A stretch of DNA of 55,472 nucleotides, counting the filler, from Dirinaria sp. TL-2023a (lineage: Eukaryota): the NCBI GenBank assembly GCA_051941275.1. It is 5 parts of 5 records of this genome, joined end to end, with 100 filler letters (N's around TTAATTAATTAA, not from the genome) between each part and the next. Parts side by side here need not be neighbours in the genome. Positions count along the whole stretch, not along the records: positions 22,278 to 33,308 come from JAVEBF010000882.1; 4 more parts are not named here. One strand, written 5' to 3'. A program made the translations under genes and the position numbers. Positions 388 to 49,736 of the stretch are shown here, in pieces; the stretch's first letter is position 1, and the number at the start of each line of letters is the position of its first letter. Under the pieces are notes generated by a model that worked only from the letters and a program-made list of their open reading frames with translations, searched no databases and had not been told where the DNA came from.

Positions 388-906
388 CTAGCGGCTCGTG
401 TCGCGTGGTCTCGAATATCCTCTGACCGTGATTTTAATAGCTTTCGTTCTGCCCGCATACGTGGTTCCGCCGTAGCTAGAGGAATGTTCGTTCGAGCACG
501 CCATGATCAATTCCGTCGTCGCGAGCCCGACCTCCGTCCAGCTGCTCCTTGAAGTCGCATGCGGTCCCACGGGCTCGACGAGGATTTCGCAGTTTCCGGA
601 CCGTTCGAATGTCGGGATCTTGTATCCATCATCTGAACCGTCCCCGTGGAAGGTGGCGATATCGGGCACGGAGGGGAAGGCACGCAGGGCGGTGAAGCAG
701 CTGAAGGTGTCTGTCGAGGGGGACCAGCGTGGTGGGTTCTTGATGCAGGCGACGGCTTGGTTGTCAGACGCTGTCAAGGTCAAGTTGCCGCCGTTTTCGG
801 TTGTCGTCGAGGGCAATCCCAACGAAGGGGCGGGCAGTGCCGCTGCAGAGACGGAAAAAGAAAATAGAGCTGGAAGGAGGAGCAAAAAAGAAGTGATTGC
901 TTTCAT
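388..906 (-). CDS. Small secreted Cys-containing protein (candidate effector)
   Basis: 172-aa ORF with hydrophobic signal peptide MKAITSFLLLLPALFSFSVSAAALP; pattern C..C..IP..GNCEI..SSW.EV..L..AC..GG is shared with the genes at 48992 and 50122. Confidence 0.8.
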   Translation of the reverse strand: MKAITSFLLLLPALFSFSVSAAALPAPSLGLPSTTTENGGNLTLTASDNQAVACIKNPPRWSPSTDTFSCFTALRAFPSVPDIATFHGDGSDDGYKIPTFERSGNCEILVEPVGPHATSRSSWTEVGLATTELIMACSNEHSSSYGGTTYAGRTKAIKITVRGYSRPRDTSR

Positions 907-2456
907 GGTGAGTTTTTTCGATGGTGGTAATAGAGACAGGTCGACAATGCTTCCTGGGTAATCAGAGCAGGTGAACTGTAGAAGAAACGCTGCCTACCTA
1001 GATTGATCCCGGATGGCATGGCGCTTTTAAAGGCTTCATGAGTCGGCAACAAAACTGCCATCGTAAAAAAAAGCGACTTCAATTCGAGATCACAGCGGGA
1101 TCTGACCCTTTCTGCCGTGGGCTCAGCCTTGAGCGTTCCTGAATGGAAAATACCAAGCATACATAACCGACCGTCGACCGGTCGGACTAGGAAATTAGAA
1201 CAGATATGTGCAGTGTTTTTAGAATCATTTCCCTTCTCAGGCCGCGGCTCAGAGCAGAACGTTGGAACATTTCCCGTGCTAAATCAGATGCGCCAGGGGT
1301 CGCGACTTGACGCGCATGCGCAAACACATCCTGACGATAGGAAAGACTAGACACTTTTGGATTGCCTATCGTCGCCGTACCTTGGAATAATGTGCTCATG
1401 GGAGTAGCTTCGAGACACCTAGATAAGCCAACCAAAAAATCACTTCACTCTTTGAACCAGCTCTGTCCGAAGGTTGGATTCAGACATTGCAGAGCGGAAG
1501 AGGTGCGTGTGTCGTAGATAGAAGTAGTTTCTAGTGAAGAAGCCTTGACTTATCATGTACAGTATCTTACATGACTAGAGTCAAAGACCCAGGCAGTGCA
1601 AAGCCTGAAGTCTTGCAGCACTTCCATGAGCTGCGATCTTTGAGTGACTCAGGCATGATAACGGGTAGTCGGATATTCGAAGGCCGGCACGTACGCCTAG
1701 GCCAGTCAATGTGTGCGCTATGAACCTCACTCTGACATGTAGGCTCTTGCTGCTTGCCATCCATGTCCATGTGGGAGAAGGTCTGGATGAAAAGGTGGGT
1801 ATGAAAAGGTATCAACTGGAAGCTGGTGGGAGCTTTAGGGGGCAGCGATCACTGTTGATTGCCTTGGCTGTTCTGGGCCGATAGCATCGTCGTGTAGAGG
1901 ATGCATGGTACCTGCGCATATGGTAAGCACATTCGTTGCAGCAGAGCACGGCACGCATGTCGCCTGCTTGTCTGGCCTATGGTATTTCTTGCATGTATCA
2001 TCTACTCGTGCGATGATCGCTTGTTGCCTTCCAAGAGTTAGCGGTCCGACTCCTTGGCGCCTTCTGTTGCCAACACTGAAAGCACTGCGGCACTTGCTTG
2101 TATATGTCTACTACGGTACGGGGAGGTCAGAACGAAAGGCTCTGCATGCCATCCATCGAACGTATGTAAAGTATGCCTATGTACACGCTGAGCCTCCTCG
2201 ATGGTATCTCCCTCATCACAACGTAGGATAAAATCCCATTGCCTATTCATTGTCTGATAAATACCTCTACGGTGCCATGCCAATCAGGATTGGCACGTTG
2301 AGTAAGCCAATCGATAAAGACAGCGAACTTTGAACAAGCCATGATCCTGCACTTCACCTTGACTTCACGCCCATCGAATATGGACCAGAGAACAGGCAGA
2401 AACAGCGGGCCCGGTGCCAATTTCCCCCCAGCTTCTATGCTACCGGCGCATCGCTC

Positions 2457-11039: not shown

Positions 11040-11139
11040 NNNNNNNNNNNNNNNNNNNNNNNNNNNNNNNNNNNNNNNNNNNNTTAATTAATTAANNNNN
11101 NNNNNNNNNNNNNNNNNNNNNNNNNNNNNNNNNNNNNNN
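11040..11139. other. Artificial contig linker (N-run, TTAATTAATTAA, N-run)
   Basis: 100-nt spacer with stops in all six frames, identical at four positions. Confidence 0.98.
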
Positions 11140-22177: not shown

Positions 22178-22277
22178 NNNNNNNNNNNNNNNNNNNNNNN
22201 NNNNNNNNNNNNNNNNNNNNNTTAATTAATTAANNNNNNNNNNNNNNNNNNNNNNNNNNNNNNNNNNNNNNNNNNNN
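22178..22277. other. Artificial contig linker
   Basis: N-run, TTAATTAATTAA, N-run. Confidence 0.98.
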
Positions 22278-22788: not shown

Positions 22789-23681
22789 TTATGTTGGGGA
22801 CGGTATAGCTTTTCCCTTACAAGCCGTTGGGAAAGCGGTGAAGTACCTGGTCGGCGTAGGGGCTTGCTGTCCGGGCTTCACGTTGTATCCGTCGTTGGGA
22901 TAGAATCCCATGCGCAAACAGCCGACATCGTACCATCCGCCCAGGCCAGCATTGGCGATACCTGTCACAGAACGATTTTTATTAGCTTCATCTGGCTTAT
23001 CTTTACGATAATAGTGTAGGGGGGGGGAAGGTTACATTTTTCATAGGTGTTGATGATGATCTGTTGATAGGCGAGCGGCTGCCCGCCTCCAGACGGGGGA
23101 TACTCTTTCGTTGGATCCTGGTTCGGGAACAGATTGCAGCCGGGGATCCAGCCCACGTTCGATATATAGTTTACCCCGCGGTTGGTGACTTCGGTGAAGT
23201 TCGGCGAGGAGCTGGACATGGGATTTACAGGGACGTTGGTCATGAAGGAGACCACTTCGCTCACGTCCTTGGAGTGGACGTCTCCCAAGCAGGATTGGCT
23301 GGGTATGCAGTTCAATGCGCCGATGGTTGCTGTGGGCGGTGGCGGTGTCGTCGTCGGTGGTGCGATCGTCGTACTTGGTGCTCTTGACGTACTTGGCGGC
23401 GCTGCAACGGATGATGAAGTGCTTGAGGTAGAACACGCGTCTGGAAGTATCGTGCAGTTGACCCAGCTCCAGTCGGCTATATCGCAGTCCGCACCCCAGT
23501 CTGTGCAATCGCAGTCGCCATCATCAGGACATCCGGGGTCTGTTTGGCGATATGTCAGGCTACGCGGGCTCAGTCTCATGTCGGAGTGTGCAAATCGTGC
23601 GATGTCGACCATGGAGGCTGTGGCCTTGAGCGAGAGTGTGGCGAACCAAACGGCTAAAAGGAGGCGATGGGAAAAAGCCAT
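22789..23681 (-). CDS. Secreted Cys-rich modular protein (small Cys module, Ser/Thr/Pro linker, C-terminal globular domain)
   Basis: Signal peptide; intron about 22962-23035 (GTAACC..ACAG) extends the ORF with C-IANAGLGGWYDVGCLRMGFYPN...PSPT*. Confidence 0.8.
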
Positions 23682-24798: not shown

Positions 24799-25813
24799 AT
24801 GAGGGTCAATGGCAACTTAGGCCTTCTGGCGCTCCTAGCCACAATTATGACCACTGCGTATGGGCACGACGGTATCACAGTCGCTCCTCATAGGTACAAC
24901 AAACTACTACCGAGGCAAACGACGAGTGCAGCCCCAGCCGCCACCTCCTCTGCCGGAGTATGTAAAAGAGATAATGACCCACCACCTTACCTCGTTGTTC
25001 GTGAGCCGAAGCCACACCGCTTGGCCAAAAGGGTCGAGAAAAACATACCCGGTACGTTGAAACCACTTCTCATTTAATATCTCCCCAAACAAAATATCAA
25101 CCTTTTTTCCTCTAACGTTCATGATCAGGGACAAGCCCACTGGTATCGGCACTGAAAAATATCCCCAATTTCGCCAAATATGCTACCGGGATCGTCACGA
25201 ACCGCCTCGCGCACGGCGGTATACAGAAACACAGCATGGTGACCGGGTTGAAGGGTGTCTACGAGTTTAGCGGAAAATTGATCATCGACGGACAACAGAT
25301 GAAATCGCCTATGCCGTGGATCATTCGATGGGACTATGATCCGGACAAGCTGACGTAAGTTCCCATCCACATCCTCATCCCACTTCCGCCTGGTTATCTG
25401 TGTTATATCTGTCTATAACTCGAAGCCCCTTGCCATGATCTCCAAGGTCGCAAGGCTGCGTGGAACTCGCCCTAGTCCATTAGCAAGACTAATGTACCAA
25501 CCTGAACAGACACGTCAACGCCGAATTCGGCAAGGGCTCCGACAACCCTACATTCGCATACACCTTTGCCTCCAACACCGCCGAATACGGCATCAACTAC
25601 ATGTGGGACGCCGTCTCCAACCTCATCAAGTATGCCGAGTACGACGTCGGCACGTCCGCGTCGACGGGAACACCGAGCTTCGTGCCCGGAACCTCGGAGC
25701 AAGACGCCGTCAATGCCATTGCCGGGCTGTGGAACCAACTGTTGAATTATGGTTGCGGAGCGGGTGGGGTGCCGATTGATAATCCGTTGAACCCGAACGC
25801 GCCGCCGACTTAG
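24799..25813 (+). CDS. Secreted preproprotein with dibasic (Kex2-type) sites; candidate toxin/effector
   Basis: Signal peptide, CKR and LAKR sites; introns about 25052-25128 and 25355-25509 give a continuous frame including WIIRWDYDPDKLTHVNAEFGKG and ending NPNAPPT*. Confidence 0.78.
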
Positions 25814-26620: not shown

Positions 26621-27230
26621 CTACAACTCAGAATACCATTCAACACCCAGTGTAATCTTGCACGGCAAGACATCGACGAAAAGCCTGCCCTTCGGGCTTC
26701 CAAGTTGAAAAGACATATCTCTCATGTCTTGCTCCAAATCCAACCAATCTCGCTGCAAAGGGCGTAGATCATACTTTAGCGCAAACAGTGCAATGAAGAC
26801 AGCAATGCCTTCTATCGCAAAATGCTTGCCCGGGCAGATCGTGGCTCCTCCTCCGAAGCCCCGATAAGCCGCAAGCGGCACTTTCGCCTTGTTTGAGGAT
26901 TTGTTGAATCTATCTTTGTCGAAAATATCGACAGATTCACCCCAGGTCCTTTCATCGAAATGGATTGTGCGGTTGGGAATGATCACGGTAGGGCCTTTTT
27001 CTCAGCAGGTACTGTTCGTGCAGAACGACGTCTTAACGGACCAGTCTTGGACCGATGCCCGTGGTGCGAAGCCGTATCACCTCCTGGATTATCGACTCAA
27101 TCTCCAGTGATTGTTGGCTTTTGAGAATGTTGATTTTTCTTCTTTCAACTCCTGCATGCCAGTATTGTGTTTGACTAGCTTTTCCTGCTTCCTGACTCGT
27201 GGTTTACAGGCTTCAAGCCTTGCAGCCCAT
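26621..27230 (-). pseudogene. Cytochrome P450 C-terminal fragment (pseudogene)
   Basis: K-helix IQEVIRL, heme motif GFGGGATICPGKHFA, FDKDRF; in-frame TAA at 27033-27035 and a frameshift near 26995; N-terminal part absent. Confidence 0.85.
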
Positions 27231-27244
27231 CCGTTGTTTTTAAA

Positions 27245-28528
27245 ACCATCCTTCCTTGAAATCGGCGCTTGGGTGATAGTTGAGCCTTTGTCTCGCTTTC
27301 TCAATCTGATAAGTATGCTCGAAACAAGCGAATATAATTTCCTGCCCGGCGAAAGTTGTAGGAAGCTGTTGCCCTAAACTGGAAATCCACCAAAATAGCT
27401 CAAAAATCAAAACCATGATATGAAGTAGCCAAGGGGCAAGTTTGAGAGGTTTTTACGTCTGTGGACGTTGCCAGCCAGCAGCCTCCCAAATAAGATGCGG
27501 ATAATCCCAGAACTTGTGTCTCTCTCCGTTCGTGATATTGCAAGTCTCGCCATCGAGCTTAGGTAGCGAAGGATCAGCGCGGTTGACAAGACGGTCATTC
27601 AGACCCGATCCTAAGAGGAAATGCGCATTGGCAGCGTTTTCGACGCTTAAGAAGTTGCATTCGTTATAGCCGTCTCCAAGAACGACGCCCGTTTGATTTC
27701 TCTCGAGCGCCCTTAGGCAGCCTGGAACGGATAGCAGATCCCTCTCCCCGGAGACCAAAGGCAGTCGGAGGCACGCGGTCAAGAGCACCTTTTCTCGTTT
27801 GTCTGTTGCAGTCGGATTATTTGCGTCAAGGGCCATTCTGTCTGCGATGGCTTTGCACTTTCCGTAAGGGTGCGCCCAGATATCATTATGTTCAATCAAG
27901 GGAGCCGATTCGTCAAGATTCTTGTGCTCCGAGCCAGCAGCTACCGTAGTCGAAGAGACATAAATGAATATCTTAACTGATTCAACGGTGCGAGAGATGT
28001 CAAGCAATGTCCTCGTTCCTCCGACGATGGTCTTGTGGTGAGTCTTGATATGGCTGGATGTCGACGGTGGGCACGCAGCGTGAATAATGATCTCCGGACG
28101 AATCTCGGTCACAGTTTTGCGCAAAGATTCGGGGCATAACAAATCGCCAGTATGATAGGAAACTCCAGGTATCATGTCCTGGTAAGGATCCCGACTTAGT
28201 GTCGAGGTAGGTCTGACGTCAATGGGGCAGGCAGCATCGGCATGTATGATGGTCAACTTGCATGCTTATTATTAAAAGAGGAAGGATGCCAGTGTGGCCT
28301 AAATACCTTACATGATAATAATACGCTAGCGGCCCTAAGGATAAGTCCCGAGGTATAGCCGAGAAGATCCCGAGGTCTAGCCGAAAGATAACTGCAACCT
28401 CCAACACTTAGAACGGCTATCGAGCTGCATTTTGCTTTCTCTTGGAAGCATTTGGTGATATGGTGACCCACGAAACCAGCGCCCCCTACAACTAGCACAC
28501 GGCCGAATATCGTATTCAATTCTTCCAT
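27245..28528 (-). pseudogene. 3-beta-hydroxysteroid dehydrogenase / ERG26-like extended SDR, disrupted
   Basis: VLVVGGAGFVGHHI Rossmann motif, YVSST, catalytic YGKCK, C-terminal IEKARQRLNYHP; interrupted by the insertion at 28200-28406 and frameshifted/stopped near 27453. Confidence 0.85.
28200..28406. mobile_element. Solo-LTR-like insertion (207 bp) with 5-bp target-site duplication CTTAG
   Basis: CTTAG(28195-28199)|TGTCGAGGTAG...CAACCTCCAACA|CTTAG(28407-28411); TG...CA ends with imperfect inverted termini; removing it plus one TSD restores IAVLS-RDPYQ in frame. Confidence 0.85.
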
Positions 28529-29688: not shown

Positions 29689-31262
29689 ATGTCGACCTCC
29701 TCCGATATGTCTTCACAAAACCTGCCAAATCTTTCAGACCTCACTCCACAAGAGCTGCAAACTCTAGCAAATACACCAGCAGGTCCAACGCCTCATGGCA
29801 CCACTCCTGATTTTAGTGATCCGCAAACAAATTATGGTCCTTTGTACTCAGTATCATCGCTGCTGCTAGCCTTATCAATTATTTTTGCCAGCAGCCGTAT
29901 TTACCAGAAGTTGAGGGTCATTCGGAAGCCTACTATCGATGATAGTATGTCTGAATGAGTCTACGACCTTGCAGGCCGACTGACTGATATTTCAACAGTA
30001 ACTCTGCTTGTGGGCTTTGTAAGACCTATTCAAGTACTAATACTTGGAGATCTTGATTGACTTGGGCTGTGGTCGCAGTTTGGAGCAGTTGCTTATTATG
30101 TAGCATGTATTTGGGGTAAGTCGAACAAAGCGAGGTTACGGTTTAAACTCTGATTAAACCAGGTGTTAAATATGGGAAGTTCGGGCGACACATTTGGGAC
30201 ATCAGCATGCTGCAAGCAGCCAGCCTGGACTTGCTAGTCGTAAGTTGATTCCACTGTGGAATAAAATCAATTACGGAGTCTATTCTTACTCGCAATAGCC
30301 GGCTTACCTTTCCAGCGTTCTGACACCGCCGACCATGCTTTTCACAAAGGTGACATTCTTCATAATGTACCTTAGTATCTTCGGACAGTGGCGCTGGATG
30401 AGAATTGCCGCCACCTTGGGCGGTAGCGTCACAGTGATCTTCTATACTGCAATGACCGCAAGCATGTTTGCCTTTTCGACACCTGGGCGACATGAGACAT
30501 GGGTAGAACATCAATATAGCCGCGGACTGAGGCTTGCCGCACGATTTGGACCAGCCCAATCTGCCGTTGGGCTTGGGATCGACTTTTACGTGCTGGTGCT
30601 CCCATTCATTGGGGTCTCAAAGCTACAAATGCCCTTTCCCCGGAAAGTTGGGGTCACTGTCATCTTCATGAGCGCTATACTGTATGGAATCTCCCTCTCC
30701 CCAAATCCGGGTGCGTTATCACCTTGGCGGAACACTGACTTCAACAGAGCATGCTTAGGCTCGATACTGAGCCTCATTTATCGATTGAGACTTGCTGCAA
30801 CATATGATACGACATGGCTTGCAACCCCCGTCTTCATCACAACGTAAGTAGTCTGATTTGATGATACACGGAAGTCTAGGCCTGATTTCCCCATCTCACA
30901 GCCTCCTAGAACTACAGGTGGGAATCATGATTGCGTGTATGCCCGCAATGAGCCTCACATGCCGACACCTCGGTCCTACATACGGCGAAATCAAGAGTAA
31001 ACTCTCACGCTACTATAATACTCGTCTATTTTCAATTACAAGATCAAAGGAGTCGAAGACTCACAAGGACACTCTCGCTGATGTCATTGAGCTTTACGAC
31101 GGCGGCGGCGCAAAGTCCGGTCATCCCACGAACAAGGACCAGTACGAAATTTCAAGCACGGTACCAGCAAGAAGTCCAGGTTCCAATATTGGTAAACATA
31201 GCCACACCGCTACCGAAACAGACACTAGCCAATTGATTCACGGTACGCATTGGTACAGCTAA
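29689..31262 (+). CDS. Pth11-like GPCR / fungal rhodopsin-domain integral membrane protein
   Basis: PAGPTPHGTTPDFSDP N-terminus, first TM helix then IDD, FGRHIWDI, FTKVTFFIMYLSIF, IDFYVLVLPF, LELQVGIMIACMP; many short introns, exon borders approximate. Confidence 0.85.
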
Positions 31263-33308: not shown

Positions 33309-33408
33309 NNNNNNNNNNNNNNNNNNNNNNNNNNNNNNNNNNNNNNNNNNNNTTAATTAATTAANNNNNNNNNNNNNNNNNNNNNNNNNNNNNNNNNNNN
33401 NNNNNNNN
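33309..33408. other. Artificial contig linker
   Basis: N-run, TTAATTAATTAA, N-run. Confidence 0.98.
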
Positions 33409-44391: not shown

Positions 44392-44491
44392 NNNNNNNNN
44401 NNNNNNNNNNNNNNNNNNNNNNNNNNNNNNNNNNNTTAATTAATTAANNNNNNNNNNNNNNNNNNNNNNNNNNNNNNNNNNNNNNNNNNNN
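44392..44491. other. Artificial contig linker
   Basis: N-run, TTAATTAATTAA, N-run. Confidence 0.98.
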
Positions 44492-46375: not shown

Positions 46376-48181
46376 TCACAAGGTGCTGTTCGCGCCTCCT
46401 GTCCCGTGTCCCTTGCGACTTTGCAATTTTGTAAAGCCTGATTGCTTGACCGTAACCTCGTCATTCCCGCTCGAAGTCGTCGAAACGCAAACATCGTACT
46501 TCGACAGCGGCGCTTCGTTCATCTCATCAGTAACCGGCTGCGACTGACTCAGGAACTCTGTGGAAAATCGAGCCTTGACTTGGCAATCTACGGCCGTTTC
46601 CAGAGACCGGGCCCCAAGTTCCGGCATATAGAAATCCTTTGCCAAAGAGGAACAAATCTTTCCGTCGTCCACAAAGTTCAGGTGCAAGTGGCCAGCGAGC
46701 TTCTTAGTCGCAATATTGATCGGTTCTCGCACGCTGTTGGCTAGCTGAAGAAGGAATCTGTAGACCACGACCGCTTGTTCACCTTCTGTGAACGGGAAGA
46801 AGGGTACAATGTAAGTCACTCGGCCTGTAAGTGGTGCTCCGATAGTTGGGGTGAAAGTCTCTTTGAGCCTAGTATGGAGCTCTTTGAACAGGGCAATACG
46901 CTGCTGCTCCTCAGTGCGATGTTCGATATGGTCCACCCAAAATTTGCCGATTGTCTCCTCACCGTGATTAGTTGCCAAAATCCAAATTACCTTCGAGCAG
47001 TCCAGCTTCTTCTTGTCGCGGCGGTCTCTGTAATCACCGCACTGAAAAAGGAGAAGTAGGCTCTGGCGAACTTCTTTGGAGGTCTTGTCGAACTCGTCAA
47101 GAAAGACAACACTGCCCTGGCCAGCCCATTTGGCAAGGTGGTTGTTCAGGGGACTTCCCTCCTCGTAGCCACGATAGGGCGCCTTCCGACCGAAAAGATC
47201 TGTCTCGCACTCCATCTCTGTGCAGTCGACTGACATAGATTCCAGAGACATAAGTTCTCCCATTCGCATCGCCAGTTCGGTCTTGCCGTGACCGCTTGGG
47301 CCAGCGAAGAGCAAGACAAGTGGCTTGGGATTCTCGAACAGAAGTTGGCTCGTGATAGATTCCAATACGTCGTTTATTGCTGGATGCTGCCCAACTATAT
47401 GGAACGGTATTCCAAACAACGCCGTAGCATCGTGCAGCTTTGCGAGCTGCTCTCGCTTAGGCGAGGGTTTGGGAAACTTCTCTGCTTTCCATAGCGAATA
47501 CCGTTGCATTAGGTTCAGAGACCGGCAAAGGGCGTTCTGGACCTCCAGTGTGCACCAAGCAAGCGGATCAATAGATTCTGTGGCTGGCGTGGTCTGAAGC
47601 CTGGCTGGGGATTTTCGGTAGTCTCTCCACATTTCCTCGGGTATGTCCCGTGGGTTTGCTCCGCTAGCAAGCAGTGCAATTACTGTTGGCGTGGTATCTA
47701 GGACCTGATTTTCAGCACTGATCACAGCGTAGGCCAAAACCGGCAGTTTGGACAATAGCGCTCTCTGTTTTGAACACGCTCCTAGGCTGCAGAGCAATTT
47801 AATGAGCTTCGGAGAATTGCGTTCAACAGCGAAGAACAAAATTGGATATCCAGGGTCCAGTGTCTTGGTCTCCACAGCCACTCCAAGCTCATACTCGATG
47901 GAAGTTGCGGGCTCCTTTCTCACATAACGTTCGATGCATGGTACACTGATACCATTTTGAATGGCCCACGCTAAGATCTCCACGGAAAATTCAGAATTGT
48001 CTTTCAAATAGTCTAAGGTCGCGTCCACAGCCTCCTTGTTGTCCAAAACATCCACAGCTTTTGCTCGGATCTTCGGCAGGATAAAAGGCAGGGTGATTTT
48101 CTATCACCATGGGATCAGTGGCTGTCTCCATGGCCCTAAGAATGATCATCGGACCGGCTTGCCACCTCCACTTTCTCCCAT
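46376..48181 (-). CDS. AAA+ ATPase with a single ClpA/B NBD2-type domain and an N-terminal ankyrin-like region
   Basis: HIVGQHPAI, LLFAGPSGHGKTELA (Walker A), VVFLDEFDK (Walker B), ILATN, GARSL (sensor 2); ankyrin-like PILFFAVERNSPKLIKLLCSLGA and ALLASGANP; start at 48181 with intron about 48102-48154 is inferred. Confidence 0.85.
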
Positions 48182-48991
48182 GTTTGCTTCGACCCAGCCC
48201 CGTCTTGGTTTTCGTTGCAGCAAAAGGGTGTGACTCTAGTAAGAGCGCTGCTCTACAATGTGATCATGCAATCTACTTAGTTCCAATTGAAGCCCACGTA
48301 TAGAAACGTGGGAGGTAGTCATCTGGAATAAGTGTAGATTCCGAAACCGATTTTAAGTCAGAGGAGGACCAGACAACGCCAGCTGCGTGCCATCTCAAGC
48401 CTGCTTCCATTTTAGAGTAATCGATGAACAAAGAAGCTGCAAAAGTGCTAAAGGCTTGATGCAGCTGCTAGCTGCTGCAGCGCATTCGTGAAAATTGGTA
48501 GATAGTATATCGACTTCAGCGCGAGATCATTATTCATCGAGGTAGTAATGGTCATTTGCGTCAACGGATGGGAGCTCTTCAAAGATAAGGAATATCACAA
48601 CATTGAGAAATCTGATACCATATTATGTAATCTGGAGCAGCTCAAGTGTAGGTTCAGTGCGTTGTGCTTCGCCAGACAGGCAGCACCTTGCTGGATCCGA
48701 TTCAGGCACAGCTGGTTTCGGCATGGGCTACATGCTTGAGGACGGCACGATCCAAGATTCTCAGCATGCACCTAAGTGTACATGGACTCATGGAGGTCCA
48801 CAGTCAAGAGTCATAAGCGACACTAGCTGAATCTTGGTGGGGAACGTACGGTCACATATGCGCAAAGCTGCTTTGTGCCTGCAAGCGACGCATCTTAAGT
48901 TTCATCCCACATCAGAAGAGGTTTTCAGAAGTGCAGCTGCCAGATCCTCAGAACAGCATCGGAGCCAAATCTCTTTCATTTTCGTGTTGCG

Positions 48992-49736
48992 ATGAAATTT
49001 CTTGTGGCGTTTGAGATCGTACTCAGCTGTTTGCTTCTGACACAGGTCTGCGTCCATCGAGTTGACGCCGGACCGGTATGCGCGACAAGAAAGATAGGCA
49101 AGCCACTGCTGCAAGACTGTCGTATCCTGTACGACAGGCTGCCGTTCATTAATTCGGCACCTGGCGATACACCTGGACTCGTTGCCCCCAGATTGTTTGT
49201 CGAGCCTCAGTTCCTCTTCGTACCTTTTGGCTCGGTGAGGAACCCTTACTCTGAATCTAGTATGGTACAGCTCCCAAAGACATGGCGATTCAGTAAGTAG
49301 TCATCCAAACTCGAGAAAGCGGAAAGAAATCACTCATGTGTTCTGTGGCAATGTCTCAGACACTTGTCGTATCGCGTTGATGAGCTACCCGGACCCCACT
49401 GGTTTTGTTCGGAGGCCAATCGTTACCTCGGCATGGAATCTTGTGTTGAGCGACCTTTCGCCAGCTATTGACTTATGTGTGGGGCGCGAACAACAAGGCG
49501 TAGTCCAATTCATTAATGGTGGGCCTCTCAACTGTTTTTTTTTTCGGACGATTGGAATTGTTCGCTGATGGAAAGAAGACCCACTCGGTCATATCCTGAT
49601 GATGGCGTACATTTACGAGAGTGGCTCGGACTTCGAGACTGAAATGAATGCGTACATGAGCGGTTTCAAGGCTCTTAGGCCGGACGATATTCTCCAAAGA
49701 GCTATAGCTGATAACATGACCAGCTCCACCACTTGA
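48992..49736 (+). CDS. Small secreted Cys-containing protein, tandem paralog A
   Basis: Signal peptide; PRLFVEPQF..NPY..QLPKTWRF|.TCRIALMS..SAW..C..G; introns about 49293-49359 and 49519-49579. Confidence 0.8.

Follow-up and report, generated by a model that had tools for sequence, protein, structure and literature searches.

The locus analyzed here raises the question of whether an intron-containing fungal gene can encode a secreted RNase toxin of bacterial ancestry, as an original prediction made from the DNA had proposed. The gene occupies positions 24799-25813 of a 55,472-nt stretch of the genome of Dirinaria sp. TL-2023a (below, the window). Our analysis indicates with high confidence that its toxin-like domain is a true homolog of the family represented by PDB entry 5T86, the CdiA toxin tip of E. 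coli A0 34/86. On balance, we favor the reading that the gene encodes a BECR-like RNase toxin of this CdiA-CT family, which would be secreted, released by Kex2, derived from bacteria via an ascomycete ancestor and directed against competing microbes. The window consists of contigs, the first being C880, joined by N spacers at positions 11040-11139, 22178-22277, 33309-33408 and 44392-44491, and genes on opposite sides of a spacer are not true neighbors.

The spliced gene and its precursor

The toxin-like gene lies on an 11-kb contig (G000:C882), where three exons separated by canonical introns join into one open frame of 260 amino acids (aa). Its features are as follows.

24799..25051, plus strand: exon 1, encoding the signal peptide (approximately aa 1-22, predicted from hydropathy only), a Thr/Ala pro-region, two dibasic sites and the first six mature residues
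24961..24969, plus strand: CKR, the first Kex2-type site (aa 55-57); a Cys near the same place recurs in homologs
25021..25032, plus strand: LAKR, the Kex2-type site immediately ahead of the toxin-like domain (aa 75-78)
25052..25128, plus strand: intron 1 (77 nt, GT..AG, branch site at 25112); the same break is seen in five exon fragments from other assemblies
25129..25354, plus strand: exon 2, encoding a helix, strands, the fungal beta-hairpin insertion (about aa 128-147) and the strand ending in R151-W-D153-Y-D155
25326..25340, plus strand: R151-W152-D153-Y154-D155
25355..25509, plus strand: intron 2 (155 nt, GT..AG, branch site at 25488), splitting the motif loop; the same break is seen in four exon fragments
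25510..25813, plus strand: exon 3, encoding H161-V-N163 (25511-25519) and the final strand and helix of the 5T86-like core, which extends to aa 200 (near position 25630)
within 25510..25813, plus strand: remainder of exon 3, encoding a fungal helical, acidic extension (aa 201-260), followed by the stop

The product is letter-for-letter identical to P0001, a hypothetical protein annotated by NCBI in the metagenome-assembled genome (MAG) of Dirinaria sp. TL-2023a, the annotation being itself a gene prediction. Single-exon fragments from other assemblies provide independent sequence-level support for both splice junctions, as their break points match: five end 1-10 residues past KR-V-E-[KR]-N-I-P-G (intron 1), two end right after R-W-D-Y-D, and two restart at H-V-N (intron 2). 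The three-exon splicing claimed in the original prediction is thus borne out, and the motif is kept in frame here as in the annotated model. A protein search found one copy of the gene in the genome. The same contig carries frames with 3-beta-HSD, P450 and fungal-rhodopsin domains; these neighbors are of fungal type, therefore the gene is not bacterial contamination, and we regard it as practically certain that it is real.

The precursor comprises, in this order, the predicted signal peptide (N-terminal residues 6-21 are hydrophobic), the pro-region, the Kex2-type KR and a 182-aa domain. The latter contains the motif WIIRWDYDPDKLT plus HVNAEFG, split between the two parts by intron 2. This layout agrees in all its elements with the one described originally, where the mature part was put at about 180 aa. 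For the nine-position motif, approximately 2e-5 chance matches are expected per 5 million residues, given an assumed fungal composition and a motif defined post hoc. Fungal killer toxins are built with a signal peptide followed by a Kex2 pro-region, and the corresponding sequence features of killer-toxin and ribotoxin precursors, a signal peptide and a dibasic site directly ahead of the mature domain, are present in this protein. Moreover, KR or RR stands just ahead of the domain in 20 of the 38 motif-bearing proteins (17 begin within the domain, and the N-terminus of one is unrelated), and KR occupies the same place in six of the seven metagenome loci described below.

Homology to a bacterial toxin tip and the putative active site

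Two approaches converge on a single PDB chain. Among 177,635 PDB sequences, the best match to the profile of the fungal family is 5T86_A (E 0.0074), and the alignment includes DYDPxKxxH[IV]N. The AlphaFold2 model has high confidence for aa 81-240 (block predicted local distance difference test score, pLDDT, of 83-98), and a fold search with it over 48,161 PDB chains yielded 5T86_A as the sole match at Z >= 5 (Z 8.1, root-mean-square deviation 3.0; runner-up Z 3.9). In the superposition 95 of 104 residues are aligned, covering model aa 80-200. No barnase, RelE or colicin-type chain is among the listed fold-search matches, and a viral fold library gave nothing at E <= 0.001 (top row A0A6G5YDG1, probability 0.82, 105 aa). 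Lack of profile or structural similarity to a nuclease-type toxin had been named as refuting the original prediction; the bacterial tip 5T86 is matched in both ways.

A DNA-pattern scan of prokaryote genomes for the motif produced at least 118 bacterial loci. Those among the matches listed belong to Bacillota, Actinomycetota, Pseudomonadota, Bacteroidota and other groups; 105 of the 118 loci listed end at most 40 aa from the motif. Among the 80 listed loci with long flanks, an upstream open frame of at least 200 aa is found in 65, and one downstream immunity-like family in 68. PT-HINT, RHS or PT-VENN domains were detected upstream in three scanned loci. The RLDYDPxKGxHxN-like bacterial motif put forward in the original prediction does exist: it is a mark of the C-terminal tips of toxins of the Rhs, PT-HINT and PT-VENN/CdiA types. 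This bacterial tip family matches no Pfam or NCBIfam model. A profile of 39 of its members matches 5T86 at E 5e-38, and comparison of the fungal and bacterial profiles (hhalign) gives 97%, E 1e-10. The profile match takes in the strand with the N-terminal Glu and that with GKG...FAY, and in the global profile alignment Glu80 is paired with a conserved bacterial Glu. In one bacterial subgroup (L019, L030, L052, L055, L059, L065, L115, L024, L049) the motif is found chiefly in short frames standing on their own; its members have a C-terminal extension, and most of them lack a long carrier.

The fungal domain shares with the 5T86 family the fold over aa 80-200, the N-terminal Glu strand, R-x-D-[YF]-D-P-x-K-x-x-H-[IV]-N, the subsequent G-K and the last strand. 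In both groups the domain is placed as a C-terminal tip, proteolytically released in bacteria and predicted to be released in fungi. The fungal gene differs in having introns, a signal peptide and Kex2 sites, whereas bacterial delivery is by CdiA, Rhs or HINT; its product has a hairpin insertion of about 20 aa and a 60-aa C-terminal extension, lacks the E-x-A-R-N helix motif and is 21% identical to the bacterial protein. Fungal loci also lack an adjacent immunity gene: no homolog of the bacterial immunity family (68-member profile) was found in the window and seven fungal loci, the best E being 4 among 2733 frames.

In a FastTree phylogeny of 23 fungal and 33 bacterial representatives (99 columns), the fungal sequences, gathered by likeness to the query, form one clade with support 0.98, and the support for its sister group is 0.60-0.68. 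The N-terminal half of the underlying alignment is visibly misaligned across the hairpin insertion. Given the query-biased sampling, the misalignment and the sister-group support, we claim no donor. Since the bacterial spread is wide and the ascomycete spread is patchy, transfer probably proceeded from bacteria to fungi.

The putative active site can be compared with those of recently described toxins. The BECR-like superfamily has an optional N-terminal strand, a central helix, beta3 - loop - beta4 and a C-terminal beta5, its conserved catalytic residues closing beta3 and opening beta4 (bioRxiv 10.64898/2026.08.28.747851). This topology is seen in the model (strand 81-85, helix 88-93, strands 146-155, 159-166 and 174-179), which superposes on 5T86; R151, D153 and D155 close strand 146-155, while H161 and N163 lie on strand 159-166. 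In SRLase1 (STox_4), a BECR-like RNase, the conserved residues are R70, D72, H85 and H97 with flanking N99, the H97A mutant is dead, and the enzyme cleaves the sarcin-ricin loop of 23S rRNA in an EF-Tu-dependent manner, leaving free RNA and eukaryotic ribosomes uncut (bioRxiv 10.64898/2026.09.18.752725). By analogy, R151-x-D153...H161-x-N163 appears to repeat this pattern, D153 likely corresponding to D72 of SRLase1 by likeness of pattern rather than by alignment. Both proteins have R-x-D closing one strand and H-x-N opening the next, the order helix, beta3, loop, beta4, beta5, and an extra N-terminal strand. They differ in the D-to-H loop (24 residues in SRLase1, seven in the fungal protein), and H85 of SRLase1 has no fungal counterpart.

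In Rhs2 from Salmonella, which binds EF-Tu, substitutions D192A and H204A abolish toxicity; D192 has been placed on D209 of 5T86, a structure without a mechanistic paper (bioRxiv 10.64898/2026.05.10.723254). As the 5T86 chain has 106 residues ending at 255, D209 should be the first Asp of R-V-D-Y-D, that is, D153 of the fungal protein. Accordingly numbered, the essential Asp of Rhs2 (Ntox47) takes an equivalent place, and the closest solved structure of Rhs2 is also 5T86, but the Ntox47 motif (RT, PH) is unlike the fungal one. The Ntox47 Pfam model matches neither the fungal protein nor the 5T86 family, and P0001 has no Pfam family at E <= 10. Fungal ribotoxins (alpha-sarcin, barnase-like) and yeast killer toxins are secreted, pro-peptide-processed proteins attacking RNA or rival cells, and the likeness to them appears confined to this layout and role: no barnase-like chain (RNase T1, alpha-sarcin) was listed in the fold searches, nor was there a sequence match. 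These comparisons refine the assignment to what is probably a BECR-like family (the 5T86 / SRLase1 / Ntox47 side) rather than one of barnase or fungal-ribotoxin type. A possible link to CdiA-CT O32:H37 was rejected, that toxin being described as colicin D-like (PMC12585627). Judging from the conserved residues, the domain is quite probably an active RNase.

The ascomycete family, its carriers and a divergent partner

Homologs were collected with phmmer (30 matches at E <= 0.001 among 1.84 billion representatives), a profile search (17 proteins at E <= 0.1, adding 11 to the set), a search for long fusions (one further protein, P0050, among 8000 candidates scored) and a metagenome scan (seven homologous loci out of 61 candidates). 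The identity of the phmmer matches ranges from 29 to 73%. Organism names, available for six clusters (20 proteins looked up), are all those of ascomycetes: Mycoblastus sanguinarius, Loxospora ochrophaea, Cirrosporium novae-zelandiae, Aspergillus ibericus, Alectoria sarmentosa and Exophiala spinifera. The remaining homologs are presumably fungal too, given their architecture and exon-like fragments.

R-W-D-x-D is kept in all 20 phmmer matches (of the 30) that span the first half of the motif, and H-x-N in 17 of the 18 that span the second, P0029 being the exception. The invariant core columns of a 27-sequence alignment, from which 11 of the 38 proteins (fragments, near-duplicates and P0029) were left out, are P88, L89, A92, G127, R151, W152, D153, D155, H161 and N163; R, D, D, H and N, found in 27 of 27 sequences, are thus the most invariant polar residues of the family. 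Conservation of R, D and H in homologs, another point on which the original prediction could have failed, is accordingly observed, and N is conserved as well. Pfam and NCBIfam scans of the exons, P0001 and 17 homologs matched no family, and the domain defines, as far as sequences can tell, an unannotated ascomycete family keeping R-x-D...H-x-N.

A single-sequence search of the PDB gave noise at E ~7, and the ESM Atlas provided no usable match for aa 79-260 or for P0030. A Kp4 match (E 0.21) obtained with exon 3 alone was rejected, as it disappeared with the full protein. The short homologs P0030, P0043, P0044 and P0029 (Exophiala spinifera and others), annotated with neither signal peptide nor KR, may be truncated gene models or intracellular forms. 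No published description of this fungal family, its release mechanism or swapping of carriers and tips was found in a literature search that most subscription papers lay beyond. The accessible parts of PMC12994826, PMC13224477, PMC3482391, PMC13483458 and the Peltigera pangenome preprint (10.64898/2026.06.16.732702) do not mention the family.

Elsewhere among fungi, this domain forms the tip of long secreted proteins that reach 965 aa and whose other parts are an N-domain containing Cys, a stalk domain and Ser/Thr/Gly-rich repeats; the gene in the window is a short form without such a carrier. The carriers of P0050, P0046, P0004 and P0003 match two carriers encoded elsewhere in this genome, G000:C1340 (46-66% identity in the matched blocks) and G000:C377 (31-44%), in which the KR sites are followed by domains unrelated to the toxin-like one. 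By analogy, this resembles the shared carrier with interchangeable tips that characterizes polymorphic toxins. The C1340 tip gained no identity from Pfam, a PDB search or a single-sequence model (pLDDT 33), and the C377 tip had no Pfam or PDB sequence match; so the arrangement may also reflect ordinary domain shuffling among secreted proteins.

The first of these carrier genes (L133:657-4875, minus strand of G000:C1340) has PPGTNT-type repeats and a further domain after its KR sites, the second (L134:313-3990, minus strand of G000:C377) is multi-exon with another domain after its KR site. The C1340 tip contains Gly-Cys and a downstream His-x-Trp-Glu, which presumably recall CNF1/CheD-type deamidases.

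The toxin-like gene has a divergently oriented upstream neighbor on the same contig.

22789..23681, minus strand: divergent partner gene, encoding a protein of 272 aa that is predicted to be secreted; its intron is 23035-22962, and its start lies 1118 bp from that of the toxin-like gene
about 23457-23573, minus strand: four-Cys module of the partner gene

The four-Cys module matches the divergent neighbor at five of the seven homologous loci, with scores of 60-80 that were reached by none of 1000 shuffles, the 60-aa module query having been picked after the likeness was seen. Three of the five matching loci are near-identical alleles, so there are approximately three independent cases. No other copy of the module was found in this genome. 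The partner is a candidate for either a delivery partner or a co-regulated effector.

Several homologous loci carry an extra, similar-looking frame of 150-190 aa upstream (L120:400-963, L121:1186-1743, L125:1267-1719); the L121 copy has no Pfam match, and none was matched on the contig of the window. The P450, 3-beta-HSD and fungal-rhodopsin (PTH11-like) frames downstream on C882 are located at 26624-28265 (minus strand) and 30299-30844 (plus strand), and no link between them and the toxin-like gene was seen. Elsewhere in the window, small-secreted-protein-like frames without a Pfam match lie at 391-993 (minus strand) and 48899-49297 (plus strand), and an uninterrupted 574-aa frame with a ClpB-like AAA ATPase domain lies at 46379-48100 (minus strand).

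Function, alternatives and biological meaning

The favored reading, a Kex2-released RNase toxin used against competing microbes, is in our estimate somewhat probable and implies the following chain of events. Splicing would yield the 260-aa precursor, as the sequence-level evidence indicates, and the signal peptide would direct it to the secretory pathway. Export would keep the toxin from the cytosolic RNA of the fungus itself, so that no immunity gene would be needed. Kex2 would cut at the conserved site after K77-R78 and free a domain starting at the conserved Glu80 strand, a release point close to that of bacterial tips set free by HINT or Rhs self-cleavage. R151, D153, H161 and N163 would then cleave RNA through acid-base catalysis without a metal, the chemistry suggested for SRLase1 in its preprint, the likeliest target being translation RNA (rRNA or tRNA) of a neighboring microbe, whether bacterial, fungal or algal. 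Of the fungal antimicrobial nuclease of bacterial ancestry suggested originally, toxin-tip homology and the conserved R, D, H and N stand, whereas nuclease activity, antimicrobial role and the direction of transfer are likely rather than established. A bacteria-specific and EF-Tu-dependent action is rather doubtful. It is somewhat doubtful that ascomycetes run a polymorphic toxin system of their own, with shared secreted carriers, Kex2-released swappable enzymatic tips and a head-to-head partner, in which this tip would be a BECR-like ribotoxin of bacterial origin, still dependent on a translation factor of bacteria, for instance EF-Tu.

Several observations weigh against the favored reading. 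Foldseek alone ranks 5T86 second (E 0.11), and the fold-search tool itself cautions that a best Z of 7-8 is common; hence the weight lies on the Z gap, on the coverage and on the fact that the sequence search picks the same chain. Since the bacterial set had been picked by the motif, the profile comparison was also made with the motif masked, and the match fell to 6% (E 0.006) with the register unchanged. Searches from the fungal side (phmmer, profile, long-protein) gave no passing bacterial protein. Where bacterial members have the E-x-A-R-N helix motif, the global profile alignment shows conserved P88-L89-x-x-A92-L93 in the fungal domain, which also gains a hairpin and two helices, so the cofactor or the substrate may have changed. 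In homolog P0029 the His is replaced by Arg; P0030, P0043 and P0044 as annotated have neither signal peptide nor KR; and the short form has no evident uptake domain. The masked result, together with twilight-zone scores of 10-35 bits, could suggest that the resemblance to 5T86 arose by chance or through convergence on a short hairpin motif. This explanation is largely refuted and highly improbable, as profile and fold search independently select one PDB chain, 95 of 104 residues superpose, and the match extends to the strands with the N-terminal Glu and GKG...FAY.

The other alternatives accept the homology and concern its use. The protein may be an active RNase working outside cells in the manner of RNase T1, scavenging phosphate or nitrogen from thallus RNA or destroying foreign RNA. 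With this the short form without an uptake domain is compatible, the Ser/Thr/Gly-rich stalks of the long forms could tether the enzyme to the wall, and loss of the E-x-A-R-N motif could reflect a lost need for a host factor. We consider it unlikely: conflict genes would account better than housekeeping genes for the patchy spread, the variability of the carriers, the swapping of their tips and the proteolytic release, and SRLase1 leaves free RNA uncut (bioRxiv 10.64898/2026.09.18.752725). An effector cleaving RNA of eukaryotes (photobiont alga, other fungi), in parallel to alpha-sarcin and killer toxins, would overlap with the favored reading in chemistry and differ in the victim. Its precursor layout is that of killer toxins, the fungal-specific additions could serve uptake, and four of the six named relatives are lichen-forming fungi or a lichen-derived MAG. 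Such an effector would need self-protection, though, and no immunity-family homolog accompanies the gene in the window or the seven fungal loci; moreover, SRLase1, the one characterized relative, did not cut eukaryotic ribosomes according to the same preprint, which makes this alternative rather improbable. Finally, the domain could be a domesticated, non-catalytic binding or signaling module that retains the fold. The precedent is teneurin GHH, a toxin domain turned signaling molecule (PMC3482391), and the homolog without His would agree with it. We regard it as very unlikely, since the polar positions with the least variation are precisely R, D, D, H and N, the pattern of a working active site.

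That fungi have acquired toxin domains from bacteria is already known in general terms, with at least 13 domains reported in PMC3482391, so the concept itself is not new. Judging from the accessible preprints, BECR-like RNases were first functionally characterized in 2026, only in bacteria, and the sole fungal proteins mentioned in the accessible text of the BECR classification are RNase T1 and alpha-sarcin, its homolog survey naming bacteria and archaea (bioRxiv 10.64898/2026.08.28.747851). If the favored reading is true, this fungal branch, spliced, processed by Kex2 and retaining its catalytic residues, would represent a eukaryotic secreted use of a bacterial weapon. The protein is a testable candidate for control of thallus microbes by the lichen fungus, and allows for a clean test of whether dependence on a host factor can replace an immunity gene. 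If it does depend on an EF-Tu-type factor, the toxin would spare the fungus and the alga with no need of an immunity gene, and the bacterial community of the lichen would be shaped by it.
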